Origin: an uncultured archaeon
Lineage (GTDB): Archaea; Asgardarchaeota; Lokiarchaeia; Sigyniarchaeales; Promethearchaeaceae
Direction of reading: 5' to 3'
Assembly: GCA_964426185.1 (NCBI GenBank)
Contig: CAYRPF010000098.1
Coordinates: forward strand, 1-9,496
Length of the DNA: 9,496 nt
A program made the translations under genes and the position numbers. The stretch's first letter is position 1, and the number at the start of each line of letters is the position of its first letter. Under the pieces are notes generated by a model. It was not told where the DNA came from, made no database searches, and worked only from the letters and a program-made list of their open reading frames with translations. Shown here piece by piece: positions 2,502-9,496 of the stretch.

Positions 2502-3917
2502 TTATTTCGCACTTTTCTTAATTATTTGAATAACTTCTTCCAAATTTAATTCCCTTTCTTGCTTTTCCGTAATGAAATTCTTCAAGGTGAACTTTTGAGT
2601 TTCTAATTCTCGTGGGCCGAGAAAAATCATGAATGGAATTTCCAGCCTGTTAACAAATTTACTGGCCGCTCGAAAAGATCTGCTCATTAAATCTACCTCG
2701 GTAGAAATTCCGTTTTCTCTAAGTTTTTGGGCAATTTGAATCCCGAATGTCTGAGTTTCCAATTTAGTTCCTATGAATACCTGCGAACGCGGCTTGATTG
2801 AGGGTAATTTATTCTGTTTTTCTAATGCTAACAAAATCCGGTCAAACCCGAAGGAAAAACCCAATGCGGGAGTATCTTCCCCTCCAAATACCCTTATCAT
2901 TTCATTATAACGTCCTCCACCGCAGATTTGTTTCTGTTTTCCCAGAATGGGTACATCGATCTCGAAAACCAAGTTGGTATAGTAGTCCAAACCCCGGGCT
3001 ATACCACAATCTACAACAAAATTCTCGATTCCGGCCGCTTGCAGAAAGGGGGTGATGTGTGAAATTTTCGAATCTTCGATAGCTTTCAGAGTATTAGGGT
3101 AATCGGAAAATGCATTATTCAGCTGGTTAATTACTTTATCTGCCGGTCCTACCATATCCAATAGCAATTCTAATCTTTGAGATAATTCTGCAGAAATATT
3201 TTCCTCCGCTATCGAACCCCGATAATCCTCCAAAATTGTATCCCTGTTTTGTTCTTCTTCCAAAGCTCCTATTTCCAATTTACGGAGTAAACTGGTAATT
3301 CTATCAATAATTCCAAAGATATTCTTTTGGGTAGAATGTGAAACTTCACGTTCATTTAAGAAAGTGCGTAATACGGTCAAATCATTGATTCGAAGGATGT
3401 AATCTTCAATTTTAAATGTCCGCATGATGTCCATAGCCACTAACAGCATTTCAGCATCGGCTCCCACTTTGTCGGACCCGAAAATTTCAATTCCTGCTTG
3501 AGTAAATTGACGGAAGCGACCAGGTGCTGGTTCATCGTAGCGGAAACACGGACCTATATAATAGTATTTCTGTGGTTTTGGGCGATACATCAACTCACTG
3601 GTAATGAAAAAGCGCACTAATGAGGCTGTAAATTCTGGTCGTAGTGCGTAAAGGGGGGGATTCTCTTCAGCACGGTGTTTAGGGGGATCATAAAAGGTGA
3701 AAATATCATTAATTATCTTTTCTCCAGATCTTTTTTTATAAATATCAAAGAATTCATACATAGGCAGTTCGATCTGCTGATAGCCGTATTTTTCAAATAA
3801 TTCGACTAATTTTGATTCTACCCAGCGGCGCAATGCCATTTCTTCGGGGAGATAATCCACCGTACCGGATGGTCGTTGTAGATTAATTTTATCTTTAGAA
3901 CTGTTGTTGTTTTCCAT
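2502..3917 (-). CDS. hisS: Histidine--tRNA ligase (class IIa)
   Basis: N-terminal PSGTVDYLP, motif 1 (YGYQQIELP), ALRPEFT, motif 2 (FRYDEPAPGRFRQFTQAGIE), histidine-binding loop RGLDYYT, motif 3 (GGGRY...GFSFGFDR) and a C-terminal anticodon-binding domain. Confidence 0.97.
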   Translation of the reverse strand: MENNNSSKDKINLQRPSGTVDYLPEEMALRRWVESKLVELFEKYGYQQIELPMYEFFDIYKKRSGEKIINDIFTFYDPPKHRAEENPPLYALRPEFTASLVRFFITSELMYRPKPQKYYYIGPCFRYDEPAPGRFRQFTQAGIEIFGSDKVGADAEMLLVAMDIMRTFKIEDYILRINDLTVLRTFLNEREVSHSTQKNIFGIIDRITSLLRKLEIGALEEEQNRDTILEDYRGSIAEENISAELSQRLELLLDMVGPADKVINQLNNAFSDYPNTLKAIEDSKISHITPFLQAAGIENFVVDCGIARGLDYYTNLVFEIDVPILGKQKQICGGGRYNEMIRVFGGEDTPALGFSFGFDRILLALEKQNKLPSIKPRSQVFIGTKLETQTFGIQIAQKLRENGISTEVDLMSRSFRAASKFVNRLEIPFMIFLGPRELETQKFTLKNFITEKQERELNLEEVIQIIKKSAK

Positions 3918-3919
3918 TC

Positions 3920-3946
3920 TAATTCAAAGCATTTAATTCAAAGCAT
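3920..3946 (-). repeat. 13-bp tandem direct repeat x2 immediately upstream of hisS
   Basis: TAATTCAAAGCAT at 3920-3932 and 3934-3946 on the plus strand (ATGCTTTGAATTA on the hisS strand), 2 bp from the hisS ATG. Confidence 0.85.
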
Positions 3947-4049
3947 CCAAAAATATTTTCGTTTTCGGGATAGATTACAAGCGAAATCTTTATTTGTTTT
4001 AAAGTTGAATGAAAAATATCGAATATAGTGGTTAGGAGCAATAAGTTCA

Positions 4050-5321
4050 ATGAAATTAATTGAGAGAATCCATGCTTTTGATATTGTGCGCGGCTTTGCA
4101 GTAATTTTCATGATCATTCTCCACACTGGCTTACATGAGTGGGCTGGAGCTCAAGAACTTGAGAGTGATGTGGGAGGTACTGACCCAGTTATGGGTTTGC
4201 TGATCTTTTTTTTGACCCTCGCTGGAGTTTATTCAACCATTTTAGGTGCAGTCAATAGCTTTATGTTTTATCGACGCATTGAAACAGGTAAAAATACACC
4301 TTCCCAGCTAACTAACTATGGAATTCTAATGGGAATCTGTTTAATTGTGCTAAATTTTATTTTCCGCTTGGGGTTTAGCGGCGATTCAGGGTGGGTCTAC
4401 TTTTTGGTAAAAACCGGGCAATCCACCACTTTCCAGCCATTTTGGCTAGTCAGTAGTTCTGCTTTAACTATTTTGGGCTTAAATTCTATTTTAATACCGT
4501 TTCTATTGCAAATTATTCATACTCACCTGTCTCATGGTCTTAAAAATCGCCAAAGCTATGTGATTCTCTTCTTTTTTGGATGTTTTGTACTTTTATTAAC
4601 CTTACCCCTTCGTTGGTGGGGCGCTCCGTTGGTGGATAATTTAATTTCATCAAAACAATATTTCTTAGCTTGGTTATTAGGCTGTTTTGTTTATGATAAT
4701 TTTCCTTTATTTCCATTCATGGCTTATGCCGCCTTTGGCTCTATTCTTGGAATTTCGCTAGCTCGAAAAGAACGAGCTTCTCATATATTAGAATATACAT
4801 GGTTTCAAACCTTATTCTGGTCTGGAATAGGCATTATCGGTTTGATTCCCTTAGGTGGGATTCATCCTGGTTTAATTTATGCTACAACGCGCTTAGCAAT
4901 TTTAGAAGATTACTTCCGACATATTGCCCAATTGGGTATTATTTTCCTTTTTTTCAGTGTAGCGCTTTCTATTATTGATTTTGTCTCGAGCCCTCGCAAG
5001 GAGAGAAGAGTTAAAGGATTTCGTTTTATTTCTCGCTATGGAATGATTTCACTTACTATTTATATGTTTGAAGCTTTCTTTTCTGGTTTAATCAACGGAT
5101 TACTGAACTTAATTTCTAGCTTCCAAGGTTGGAACGCCACTCTCGGATGGGTTATTGTCGAAGGAATTATCTTAACGCTGATTTGGGGGGTGGTTGCATA
5201 CTTCTGGGAACGCGTTGGTTATAAATATTCGGTTGAATGGTTTTTAATTTGGATCGCAGGAAAAATTTCGGGTAAAAAGAGTGAAAAATATCATATGGAA
5301 CGGGTAGAAATGTCGCCATAA
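4050..5321 (+). CDS. Polytopic membrane protein, DUF1624 / heparan-alpha-glucosaminide N-acetyltransferase (HGSNAT)-like acyltransferase
   Basis: N-terminal RIxxxDxxRGxAxxxMxxxH motif (RIHAFDIVRGFAVIFMIILH), FPLFPF, GxxSLTIY and C-terminal SVEW; about 10 hydrophobic segments; GGAG at 4035-4038 upstream of the ATG. Confidence 0.8.
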   Translation: MKLIERIHAFDIVRGFAVIFMIILHTGLHEWAGAQELESDVGGTDPVMGLLIFFLTLAGVYSTILGAVNSFMFYRRIETGKNTPSQLTNYGILMGICLIVLNFIFRLGFSGDSGWVYFLVKTGQSTTFQPFWLVSSSALTILGLNSILIPFLLQIIHTHLSHGLKNRQSYVILFFFGCFVLLLTLPLRWWGAPLVDNLISSKQYFLAWLLGCFVYDNFPLFPFMAYAAFGSILGISLARKERASHILEYTWFQTLFWSGIGIIGLIPLGGIHPGLIYATTRLAILEDYFRHIAQLGIIFLFFSVALSIIDFVSSPRKERRVKGFRFISRYGMISLTIYMFEAFFSGLINGLLNLISSFQGWNATLGWVIVEGIILTLIWGVVAYFWERVGYKYSVEWFLIWIAGKISGKKSEKYHMERVEMSP

Positions 5322-5357
5322 ATTATACTCTTATATTTCATGATTAAAAATAGATAA

Positions 5358-5457
5358 TAGCCCGGCGCGGAATTGAACCACGGTCACAGGGGATCTGTAA
5401 AGAAACGAGAAGTTTAACTTTCCACAACCCTGCAGTCTACGACTAACATACCGGGCT
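5358..5457 (-). tRNA. tRNA-His(GUG) with a 29-nt intron at 37/38; non-canonical acceptor (A1:U72, A73, no encoded G-1, no encoded CCA)
   Basis: The reverse complement folds as AGCCCGG TA TGTT AGTCGTA GACT G CAGGG TT GTG G^[intron]^C CCCTG TGAC CGTGG TTCAATT CCGCG CCGGGCT A. This gives a perfect 7-bp acceptor stem, 5-bp anticodon and T stems and a canonical T loop. The anticodon GTG is at 5425-5423. Confidence 0.92.
5393..5421 (-). other. Archaeal bulge-helix-bulge tRNA intron (29 nt)
   Basis: Intron AAAGTTAAACTTCTCGTTTCTTTACAGAT. Exon U32-U35 (UUGU) pairs with intron ACAG as the 4-bp central helix, flanked by the 3-nt bulges G36-G37^A and A-U^C38. Confidence 0.88.
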
Positions 5458-5488
5458 AGAGATAATATTAGTATGTAGAAAAAAGAAG

Positions 5489-5509: not shown

Positions 5510-5582
5510 TTTAGCGGCATCCCGGCTAATATTATACGTGCTTGTTCTTCACGTTGAACCAATATAGCATCATTGGAAATAC

Positions 5583-8600: not shown

Positions 8601-9496
8601 ACATTTTTAATTTTAACTACCAACACGGTTTATCAATGCTGGATTACTGCGATAACATCTTGATCGAAAATAACCGAATGGTAAATAACTCTGATCACGG
8701 TATGTATTTCGAAACATTTTGCGATGCGAATGTTGTAATCAATAACACCATATCGAATAACACCGCGGTGGGAATCGGCTTTTACTCCCTAACTAACGCC
8801 AATCTCATTTTTTTCAATAATTTCACGAATAATGGGTTTCATGCCATCGATAACGGATTAGTTAATAACTGGGATAATTCTTCGCATGGAAATTATTGGG
8901 ATAATTACACTGGAAGAGATTTAGATGATGATTTAATTGGAGATATCGAGTGGGTTATCGTAGGTAGTGCTAATGCTATTGATCATTTTCCGCTGTGGGA
9001 TGATGAATTAGATTTACAGCCATTGCCTGATTTGTCTTCTCCTTTTGATATTGAATACTTTTTTGGAGATATCGGAAATAATGTTACTTGGATTGCAAAT
9101 ACCACTTTCCCAGATAGTTATATTATCACCCGAAACGGAACGATAATTATTACAGGGGCGTGGTTTAATTTTGTTCCAATTACTATCAATGTTGATGCTC
9201 TCTCGGTTGGAATTTACGTTTACAACTGCACCGTTAATACTACCAGAGGTGATTGGATCAGCGATGAAGTGTTAGTTTCAGTAAAAAGAACCCATCCGCT
9301 GATTTCTTCTCCTGAAGATCAAGAAATTCTGGTCAGCGATGATTCACACGATATAATTTGGATAGGGGATGCTCCGTTTCCTGATGTAGTCATTATCCGT
9401 CAAGATGGGGTCGAAATTTATCGAGGTTTTTGGATTTCTAATTCTCCAATTATAGTGAACTTAACTGGGCTTCTTCCCGGTAATTACATCTTTGAA
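5624..9496 (+). CDS. Large secreted/cell-surface protein: right-handed parallel beta-helix (NosD/CASH-like) repeats followed by Ig-like repeats; partial, more than 1291 aa
   Basis: Manual translation of frame +2 has no stop from the TGA at 5555-5557 to the window end. It shows a hydrophobic N-terminal segment (PMFSVIFLFIILS), an N-cap (WCRGAGTLMDPYIIEN), dozens of GIY(I/L)...N..I..N rungs, a NosD-type C-cap (GNYWDNYTGRDLDDDLIGD...DHFPL, about 8888-8995) and then 90-aa beta-sandwich repeats. The start may be ATG 5624 or ATG 5633. Confidence 0.93.
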   Translation, partial: MLVMQKCSIPYERIFPMFSVIFLFIILSNTTNTQNLNFMEEWGDLTQFHQPEIQQSWSLSPIQIDDVATGAGAHNWSWAVSQDWCRGAGTLMDPYIIENVSIDAANGAYGISISNSIKHFIIRNCSISNAGSSTWYAGIYIYNVSNGIITENSLVDNEKGIILRYFCENNTLSWNNITGKTLSGSDYGIYIYYYGQYNSIYENRIDYVGYGVYISGTSTYNNISFNWFDTISYYPIYIASASHYTVINQNQIQTGDHHGIYIDNAQYCNLTFNQISSMQENGIYLANGADYTNLTGNTLATINNLGIRIDNSMNCFLTDNTMTKSGIGSGIGIRVTSNIITDYFHQISPSNTLDGKPIYYYRDQIDLDALNFTNAAQIYLINCSFSKIANFSFSNTAYGLLMANCSYITVNNNSFTSHFFDGLFLYDVKNSNLTDNQIFSNHRNGLNIIYYSNEIFAVNNTITYNDENGVYISSYCDGITLYNNSISRNTLDGLYINDNCLRVNASYNNIRYNEQDGLDLGSYSDYFICSYNQIHHNLYNGLYIRSYTDYADILHNNISDNSRYGLYINNRVQYSNFTHNTLFRNGLSGNYYGMYMISDSNFNRITNNIFKYNQKYGLYLSSCESTIIKDNQFNSTGFGIYGNYDLEFEHYVNTNNSFDGGWIYYYLNMKNLRTTDFEAAKQIYLISCDGASIFDISIINQQYGLFLWNSSHIIVNTANLTFSHEKSIYMRRSSNNSIILADCRWYGNNYALHMDQDCSDNYFSQCNFSETQTAYGYGTFMTTNCERNTFYNNTFIKNGDRNIYLTSTCNLNNFTLNIIKNARRYEGIYIGGNSNYNLFQDNIIQDNPRSGIFITGSSFNEILDNNITNNGQSGYPGLYIYNNALNTTISGNNVIDNYGHGIVIHTGCHNARIVNNNCSLNGGSSSYGYGFWINNNCDNFTLRDNTALNNRKSGIYISANCQNGLIIRNNASYNQKNGMFMQDNCNYLEILDNIFNFNYQHGLSMLDYCDNILIENNRMVNNSDHGMYFETFCDANVVINNTISNNTAVGIGFYSLTNANLIFFNNFTNNGFHAIDNGLVNNWDNSSHGNYWDNYTGRDLDDDLIGDIEWVIVGSANAIDHFPLWDDELDLQPLPDLSSPFDIEYFFGDIGNNVTWIANTTFPDSYIITRNGTIIITGAWFNFVPITINVDALSVGIYVYNCTVNTTRGDWISDEVLVSVKRTHPLISSPEDQEILVSDDSHDIIWIGDAPFPDVVIIRQDGVEIYRGFWISNSPIIVNLTGLLPGNYIFE
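9023..9496 (+). repeat. Tandem ~90-aa Ig-like domain repeats (1 complete, 1 partial)
   Basis: SSPFD..VTW..FPDSYIITRNG..GAW..PITINVDALSVGIY aligns with SSPED..IIW..FPDVVIIRQDG..GFW..PIIVNLTGLLPGNY. The SSP motifs start at 9035 and 9305, a 270-nt period. Confidence 0.8.

Follow-up and report, generated by a model that had tools for sequence, protein, structure and literature searches.

The stretch of DNA analysed here, referred to as the window, comprises 9,496 nucleotides (positions 1 to 9,496 of contig CAYRPF010000098.1) from the genome assembly GCA_964426185.1 of an uncultured archaeon of the Promethearchaeaceae (Asgardarchaeota, Lokiarchaeia). It carries both partners of a histidine identity system: hisS, which encodes a histidyl-tRNA synthetase (HisRS) of 471 amino acids (P0001; positions 2502-3917, minus strand; recognized as an open reading frame with Pfam and PDB matches), and a gene for tRNA-His with the anticodon GUG (positions 5358-5457, minus strand). 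The tRNA gene lies upstream of hisS on the same strand at a measured distance of 1440 nt from the hisS start codon, in agreement with the initial annotation of the locus, in which about 1.44 kb had been given. The two genes are linked, yet they do not form a single operon because an open reading frame of 423 amino acids without any Pfam match (positions 4050-5321) intervenes on the opposite, plus strand. A guanosine at position -1 is regarded as a near-universal mark of tRNA-His, which in archaea and bacteria is taken to be partnered by C73, A73 being viewed as an innovation of eukaryotes (PMC3245924; PMC9976931). Judged from sequence comparison, the pair in the window probably constitutes a histidine identity system that is independent of G-1, and its tRNA-His is probably recognized by a rule that has not yet been described for archaea.

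The tRNA-His gene is interrupted by an intron. The 5' exon (5422-5457, minus strand) covers tRNA positions 1-37, with A1 at 5457 and the anticodon GUG at 5425-5423. It is followed by an intron of 29 nt at the canonical 37/38 site (5393-5421, minus strand; ARAGORN and minimum free energy (MFE) fold) and by the 3' exon (5358-5392, minus strand), which covers positions 38-73 with U72 at 5359 and A73 at 5358. The acceptor strands read AGCCCGG and CCGGGCT, which gives an A1:U72 pair, the discriminator base is A73, the variable loop has 4 nt and CCA is not encoded. A73 and the T at position -1 (5458, minus strand), both of which had been pointed out in the initial annotation, were read directly from the sequence. 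Neither default ARAGORN nor a scan of the whole window with Rfam gathering thresholds detected this tRNA-His, nor was it among the matches of a genome-wide Rfam tRNA search, in which 150 of 252 candidates were scored. When introns were permitted, ARAGORN reported tRNA-His(GUG), placed an intron of 29 nt at 37/38 and drew an 8-bp acceptor stem, and the Rfam tRNA model matched the isolated region 5358-5457 (minus strand) with 43 bits and an E value of 5e-8. Without its intron, the tRNA shares 79-80% identity with other tRNA-His genes from Asgard archaea, among them a canonical C73 gene (80% to the canonical Asgard tRNA-His of genome G010), and its identity to the remaining tRNAs of the same genome does not exceed 69%, the value for tRNA-Gln(CUG) being 61%. 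On the strength of these comparisons we regard the gene as a genuine tRNA-His gene and not as a chance look-alike. The splice sites of its intron fold at best into a relaxed bulge-helix-bulge structure (MFE fold). In relatives, the gene either contains introns of 28-38 nt and unrelated sequence at the same 37/38 site or is free of introns. The D-loop (5437-5444, minus strand) reads AGUCGUA and is devoid of the usual G18-G19 pair, and the T-loop is normal; the D-loop sequence AGTCGT is also present in genomes G077 and G140, and most relatives have AGTGG.

P0001 has the sequence of a complete class IIa HisRS. As the sole copy in its genome and with the motif-2 arginines kept, it is the housekeeping enzyme rather than a HisZ-like paralogue. 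It matches PF13393 (tRNA-synt_His, E 9e-49) over the full length of the model (1-308 of 308) as well as PF03129 (HGTP_anticodon, E 9e-13), and the matches in the PDB comprise solved HisRS down to an E value of 2e-53 and HisZ structures at 6e-20 or weaker. The motif-2 loop, encoded by positions 3504-3542 (minus strand) and delineated by alignment to E. coli HisRS (1KMM/2EL9), is RYDEPAPGRFRQF, i.e. R126-Y-D-E-P-A131-P-G-R-F-R-Q-F138. It aligns residue by residue with R113-H-E115-R-P-Q118-K-G-R121-Y-R123-Q-F of the E. coli enzyme: D128 is equivalent to E115, A131 takes the place of Q118, the reader of C73, and R134 and R136 correspond to R121 and R123, which are kept. The alignment thus bears out the earlier statement that the loop is non-canonical, and with it all elements of the initial observation at this locus are confirmed. 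A stronger signal on the enzyme side, which the initial annotation had missed, is an insertion that replaces the glycines of the G-1 pocket. Just ahead of the LRPE-x-T strand, at the site of the canonical D-(K/R)-G-G-R, P0001 reads D77-PPKHRAEENPPL-Y90 (codons at 3648-3689, minus strand), a proline-rich and glycine-free insertion of seven residues, and the position of the canonical DKGGR is occupied by DPPKHRAEENPP. The seven-residue gap is visible against the HisRS of S. aureus, of T. acidophilum (DKGGRE) and of E. coli. Insertions of 7-17 residues are found at the pocket loop throughout the A73 clade of the HisRS subfamily to which P0001 belongs (type I, see below) and in none of its C73 relatives. 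In the complex of T. thermophilus HisRS with its tRNA, G72'G73' of the other subunit build an enlarged pocket for G-1, and in Caulobacter, which lacks G-1, the pocket glycines are replaced by two aspartates (PMC4357726). By homology, the insertion in P0001 may occlude or remove the G-1 pocket. As a separate observation, the HisRS of two other Asgard families (f24 and f25; L180, L181 and L190) have DPWS(E/D)(T/K)W instead of DKGGR, and their tRNAs are canonical with G-1:C73. It follows from these sequences that not all G-1 users possess the Gly-Gly pocket motif.

The assembly from which the window stems has a size of 3.26 Mb in 155 contigs and a completeness of 92%. It contains one hisS match and one tRNA-His, which is its sole tRNA able to read histidine codons; a second hisS or a second, canonical tRNA-His, the possibility of which had been raised in the initial annotation, was not found in this genome. 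The closest named relative, Candidatus Harpocratesius repetitus FW102, belongs to the same genus and has a HisRS that is 69% identical to P0001. The family to which both belong (f1, 14 genomes) includes the two cultured organisms Promethearchaeum syntrophicum MK-D1 and Lokiarchaeum ossiferum. tRNA-His genes of relatives were collected with a covariance model built from seven sequences (R2), and each match was verified by ARAGORN or manually; an earlier model built from two His genes (R1) was unspecific, its top matches elsewhere being tRNA-Gln and tRNA-Gly. ARAGORN mis-drew several tRNA-His with multiple introns; these were read manually with the T-arm as the anchor. It also mis-calls or misses tRNA-His genes with introns at non-canonical sites, and the tRNA-His of families f9, f10, f16, f19 and f28 (L144, L145, L146, L150, L152, L153, L158 and L277) contains one to three introns at such sites, namely in the D-arm and the anticodon stem.

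Of the 14 f1 genomes, 11 yielded a tRNA-His gene, in each case with A73. At position -1, seven of these genes have T, four have A and none has G. The 1:72 pair is A:U in some and G:C in others and varies even inside the window's genus, Harpocratesius having G1:C72; the A1:U72 pair was therefore rejected as a conserved determinant. Five of the 11 genes possess an intron at 37/38, and the intron sequences are unrelated to each other. In MK-D1, L. ossiferum and H. repetitus, all of which are represented by single-contig genomes, no second tRNA-His was present among the next-best matches of the model, and because these matches were all other tRNAs, a hidden canonical tRNA-His does not exist in the three genomes. 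Assembled contigs of a 2020 RNA-seq run on an MK-D1 relative contain the whole unspliced stretch; contigs of this kind are uninformative on the ends. When all 26 scored Asgard genes with A73 are considered, position -1 is T in 17, A in 8 and G in 1, counts that are not independent as the genes are related.

Encoded G-1:C73 is found in relatives of f1 from the same class, namely in f2 (three genomes checked), f4 and genome G010 of f7, and beyond the class in f8, f9, f10, f16, f24, f25, f28 and f31 (seven genomes). Since f2, f4 and G010 keep encoded G-1:C73, the A73 state of f1 is derived, specific to the lineage and not a general Asgard feature. A73 without G-1 is also present in f3 (G090, G130) and in genome G008 of f7 within the Lokiarchaeia, in all six genomes checked of f13 (Heimdallarchaeaceae; G166 is Heimdallarchaeum aukensis), in f14, in genome G206 of f15 and in f19, where the gene has several introns and is located directly upstream of hisS, and where the HisRS of one member is labelled Hodarchaeota in NCBI. 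Genome G196 (L210, f15 g43) combines A73 with a G at -1, a gene state like that of C. elegans. The search yielded no tRNA-His for G018, G134, G135 and G139 or for families f5, f6, f11, f12, f18, f20-f23, f26, f27, f30, f32 and f33, so that the phylum-wide picture is a sample.

In a maximum-likelihood tree the Asgard HisRS fall into three subfamilies, each of which has one A73 clade beside C73 relatives. A73 without G-1 thereby maps to three clean clades, with a minimum of three state changes over the 40 rows with known tRNA. A73 lacking an encoded G-1 is thus conserved and tracks the synthetase clade, and the proposal of a co-evolved, non-canonical pair departing from the G-1:C73 rule is supported. 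Type I, which includes the enzyme from the window, contains a clade with 99% support consisting of the main type of f1, f3, G008, G196 and homologues labelled Hod-, Heimdall-, Hel- and Sigynarchaeota. Every member with known tRNA has A73, and the outgroups Methanobacterium, G010 and G307 have C73 and PQxGR loops. Type IIb, with human cytosolic HisRS as the nearest solved relative (E 4e-60), is paired with A73 in genera g2 and g5 of f1. The f1 members (L140, L141 and L139 from G038, G062 and G088) combine the loop FRDGP-x-K-(V/A/I)-GRYREF with a G-1-less A73 tRNA, and the enzyme of the sister family f16 with the loop FRDGP-x-KKGR serves G-1:C73; the type-IIb loop is without Q in either tRNA state. 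Type-III enzymes, the Heimdall type, have about 500 amino acids, and their nearest solved relatives are the HisRS of Thermoplasma and then of Trypanosoma (E 4e-58). Their loops read RDET-x-Q-x-GR-V-K-E in f13, f14, f15, f18 and f19 and RYE-x-PQ-x-GRRRE in the sister families f2 and f4, which have C73.

The motif-2 loop was surveyed in 120 homologues and about 45 HisRS linked to genomes. Among types I, II and III, lineages with C73 have RY(E/D)-x-P-Q-x-GR with no exception. The loop of the type-I A73 clade is RYD(E/K/T)-P-(A/K/T/S)-(P/K/R)-GR, apart from RYETPQPGR in G008 and RYEKPAPGR in G130. DxPA loops together with a C73 tRNA-His, which would have spoken against the compensatory changes proposed in the initial annotation, were not seen in this survey. 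Of the two individual replacements emphasized there, that of Glu by Asp has lost its diagnostic value, since RYD(N/R)PQ loops co-occur with G-1:C73 in G010, f9 and f31. The replacement of Gln by Ala holds in part: Gln is usually replaced in the type-I A73 clade, but G008 and type III keep it and type IIb has no Gln in either state. Loss of the C73-reading Gln is therefore typical of the type-I A73 clade without being obligatory.

The proximity of tRNA and synthetase genes is not restricted to the window. In seven f1 genomes with a type-I HisRS the distance between tRNA-His and hisS is 0.2-9.4 kb, and the two genes adjoin each other directly in G008 (divergent), in G196 (tandem, with tRNA-His about 150 nt upstream of a type-I hisS) and in f19 (tandem). 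The C73 lineages that were checked all have them on separate contigs or some 100 kb from each other, and the two genes are also unlinked in the A73 genomes with type IIb and in f13. A chance origin of the adjacency is unlikely because several independent adjacent arrangements exist. Furthermore, G196 harbors a type-I cassette, and the rest of its family uses type III; this suggests that the tRNA-hisS pair can move as a unit by lateral cassette transfer.

An enzyme that would add G-1 after transcription was sought with three different queries. The Thg1 domain PF04446, which detects Thg1 as well as Thg1-like proteins (TLPs), was without a match in all 14 genomes of f1, three of which consist of a single contig, and the same negative result was obtained for all 14 with an Asgard TLP protein as the query; PF14413, the C-terminal Thg1 domain, was not found in the window genome, the one genome searched with it. 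The PF04446 search was positive in 16 of 400 Asgard genomes and in the Methanosarcina control. In the other families with A73 it yielded no match among 4 genomes of f3, 31 of f13, 3 of f14, 12 of f15 and 19 of f19. The eukaryote-like branch of the initial annotation, in which Thg1 provides G-1 opposite A73, is thus not supported. A different situation is met in genome G309 (f29; L159, G309:C212:5302-5673), the tRNA-His of which has C73, an encoded CCA and T at -1, and which possesses a Thg1/TLP (E 3.5e-26). It is a candidate Asgard archaeon for the templated addition of G-1 after transcription.

Taken together, we propose the following sequence of events for the pair in the window. The precursor tRNA would be spliced at 37/38, and RNase P would cut at +1 because there is no G-1:C73 pair to shift the cut. 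As Thg1 or TLP was not found, no G would be added afterwards, and the mature tRNA would start at A1 and end with A73-CCA. HisRS would have adapted to this substrate in that the cross-subunit Gly-Gly loop, which provides room for G-1, was exchanged for the proline-rich insertion (residues 78-88) and the C73-reading Gln of motif 2 for Ala131, the catalytic core and the arginines equivalent to R121 and R123 having been kept. By analogy with Caulobacter and with Trypanosoma and Acanthamoeba, specificity would most likely reside in A73 together with the anticodon GUG, which the C-terminal domain would read.

Several points weigh against such an independence of G-1. The genome is 92% complete, and failure to find Thg1 is not equivalent to the absence of an unrelated G-adding activity. 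R136, the counterpart of E. coli R123, which is said to contact G-1, is retained in P0001. Neither of the enzyme-side correlates is universal: G008 keeps the loop Q together with A73, the enzymes of f24 and f25 serve G-1:C73 without Gly-Gly, and the other two A73 clades, type IIb and type III, show neither a comparable insertion nor a comparable loss of Q. For this reason, the pocket argument comes down to homology to one bacterial structure. Finally, the T at -1 is able to pair with A73, and T occupies this position in 17 of the 26 scored A73 genes, so that U-1 might be retained.

Two of these points lead directly to other explanations. If a G-adding activity were hidden in the genome, the system would be eukaryote-like: RNase P would cut at +1, a divergent Thg1/TLP or an unrelated enzyme would then add G-1 opposite A73, and HisRS would make use of the 5'-phosphate of G-1. 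A73 without an encoded G-1 is the exact state of eukaryotic genes, the motif-2 arginines equivalent to R121 and R123 are in place, the HisRS of g2 and g5 of f1 have human cytosolic HisRS as the nearest solved relative (E 4e-60), and TLPs do occur sporadically in Asgard archaea, as seen for 16 of 400 genomes. We nevertheless consider this explanation unlikely, given that Thg1/TLP was found neither in the 14 genomes of f1 nor in those of f3, f13, f14, f15 and f19, and that the Gly-Gly pocket loop, which human HisRS retains as DQGGE, is replaced by the insertion. In addition, archaeal TLPs act in a templated manner and would place U, not G, opposite A73 (PMC3245924). Alternatively, a templated U-1 could be retained by an RNase P cut one nucleotide further upstream, as for bacterial G-1:C73. 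The resulting U-1:A73 pair would extend the acceptor stem to 8 bp, the very stem drawn by ARAGORN for the window tRNA, and would place the 5'-phosphate canonically. The prevalence of T, the commonest base at -1, fits this idea; on the other hand, T is expected to be frequent by chance in AT-rich flanks, and the counts come from related genes and are not independent. Moreover, A is found at -1 in 8 of the 26 genes and G in 1, the base differs between the near-identical tRNAs of one genus (T in G078, A in G105 and G140), and it is A in Harpocratesius, a member of the window's own genus. We accordingly assign only a small probability to retention of U-1. A conserved U-1:A73 pair was rejected, as -1 varies between T and A among near-identical genes.

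A quite different view would be that the gene is not a tRNA-His gene by descent but a gene resembling tRNA-Gln whose anticodon has been remodelled to GUG, or else a decayed or accessory copy. A1:U72 together with A73 is indeed the acceptor signature of archaeal tRNA-Gln, and the covariance model built from two His genes matched tRNA-Gln strongly. An identity of 79-80% to tRNA-His genes as compared with 61% to its own tRNA-Gln(CUG) speaks a clear language, however, and led us to reject a remodelled tRNA-Gln. Clearly orthologous and syntenic genes in relatives have G1:C72, and the gene is the only one in its genome whose product can read histidine codons, which makes this whole explanation very improbable. 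Independence of G-1 is therefore the interpretation that we prefer for the pair.

Beyond the window, A73 without G-1 occurs in the family to which both cultured Lokiarchaeia belong, in the Heimdallarchaeaceae and in families carrying the label Hodarchaeota/Heimdallarchaeota. Because families of the Heimdall group share A73, relevance for the origin of eukaryotic A73, to which the initial annotation had alluded, is plausible. A more far-reaching scenario, which we put forward tentatively and hold to be rather doubtful as a whole, bears the possibility that the A73, G-1-less identity predates eukaryotes and goes back to the Asgard lineage that gave rise to them. Addition of G-1 opposite A73 by Thg1 would then be a secondary re-imposition, and the rule would have been rewired at least three times within Asgard archaea, in three HisRS subfamilies, the cassette having moved in some cases.

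The other genes in the window lie on the plus strand. An open reading frame that starts at 5573 and continues past the end of the window at 9496 (more than 1308 amino acids) contains seven to eight right-handed beta-helix/NosD repeats (PF13229, E 1e-74; PF05048, E 5e-68) and probably encodes a giant surface protein. The open reading frame at 1296-2495 encodes a calcineurin-like metallophosphoesterase, and those at 715-1278 (187 amino acids) and 2-481 (159 amino acids) are without Pfam match.

To our knowledge, the accepted exceptions to the use of G-1 are restricted to one alphaproteobacterial clade and a few protists. Alphaproteobacterial tRNA-His without G-1, accompanied by a divergent HisRS, was reportedly described by Ardell and Andersson in 2006 and by Wang in 2007. 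We found no literature on tRNA-His identity in Asgard archaea, most subscription journals lying outside the coverage of our search. The exception reported here extends to entire Asgard families, with the two cultured Asgard species and lineages of the Heimdall group near the eukaryotic stem among them. If our interpretation is correct, the third domain of life joins the G-1-independent systems. The three HisRS subfamilies, with their sister clades with and without G-1:C73, would then constitute a natural experiment on identity change in a synthetase, with a direct bearing on the timing of A73 and of Thg1 dependence. The Asgard HisRS/tRNA-His pairs are also candidate orthogonal pairs.

The canonical archaeal pair, as exemplified by Thermoplasma (1WU7) and Methanobacterium, consists of a tRNA with encoded G-1:C73 and an enzyme with an RYE-x-PQ-x-GR loop and a DKGGR pocket. 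The window pair shares with it the HisRS fold, the catalytic motifs and the anticodon-binding domain and differs in the base at -1, in position 73, in the motif-2 Gln and in the pocket loop. That G-1 is not encoded in many archaea has been noted before, though with regard to C73 and TLPs (Rao and Jackman; PMC4338351). With the eukaryotic cytosolic system the pair has in common A73, the lack of an encoded G-1 and the replacement of the C73-reading Gln, D-x-P-A corresponding to the same motif in R-R-D-N-P-A. Unlike here, the eukaryotic system depends on Thg1, which was not found in our searches, its loop is lengthened by Ala-Met-Thr, and the human enzyme has kept the DQGGE that is lost from P0001. 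Acanthamoeba castellanii and Trypanosoma brucei resemble the Asgard organisms in that they possess no Thg1 and a tRNA-His without G-1, and the scattered spread of this state suggests repeated origins (PMC3561963; PMC4338351). They differ as eukaryotes that lost an ancestral Thg1 system, and T. brucei has U73. The Trypanosoma HisRS is among the closest solved relatives of Asgard type III (E 4e-58) and is not close to type I of the window.

The most similar system known is that of the alphaproteobacterial RCS/RRCH clade with Caulobacter crescentus. There, too, G-1 is not encoded, position 73 is A and Thg1 is missing, the motif-2 loop co-varies with N73, the Gly-Gly pocket is altered, the state of the tRNA co-segregates with one HisRS clade, and the pair is a candidate orthogonal pair. 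For Caulobacter HisRS, changes of the anticodon cost 91-1000-fold and an added G-1 is of no benefit (PMC3064791; Yuan 2011). Lateral transfer has been proposed for the alphaproteobacterial case and is paralleled by the cassette in G196. The two systems belong, however, to different domains of life and different HisRS lineages, the nearest canonical relatives of the window enzyme being archaeal and of the Methanobacterium type. Common descent appears unlikely because the nearest relatives found are archaeal, first Asgard and then Methanobacterium, in a HisRS tree that included no alphaproteobacterial sequence. The tRNAs differ as well: in Caulobacter, G1-U72 is conserved and U20a is present as an extra nucleotide, whereas the 1:72 pair in f1 is A:U or G:C and not conserved, and the window tRNA-His, unlike that of Caulobacter, contains an archaeal intron. 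In Asgard archaea, furthermore, the change arose or became fixed in at least three HisRS subfamilies of one phylum. The pocket is Asp-Asp in Caulobacter and an insertion of 7-17 residues in Asgard type I. The pair described here most likely adds an archaeal variant to the G-1-independent systems of histidine identity already known, with a distinct solution on the side of the enzyme.

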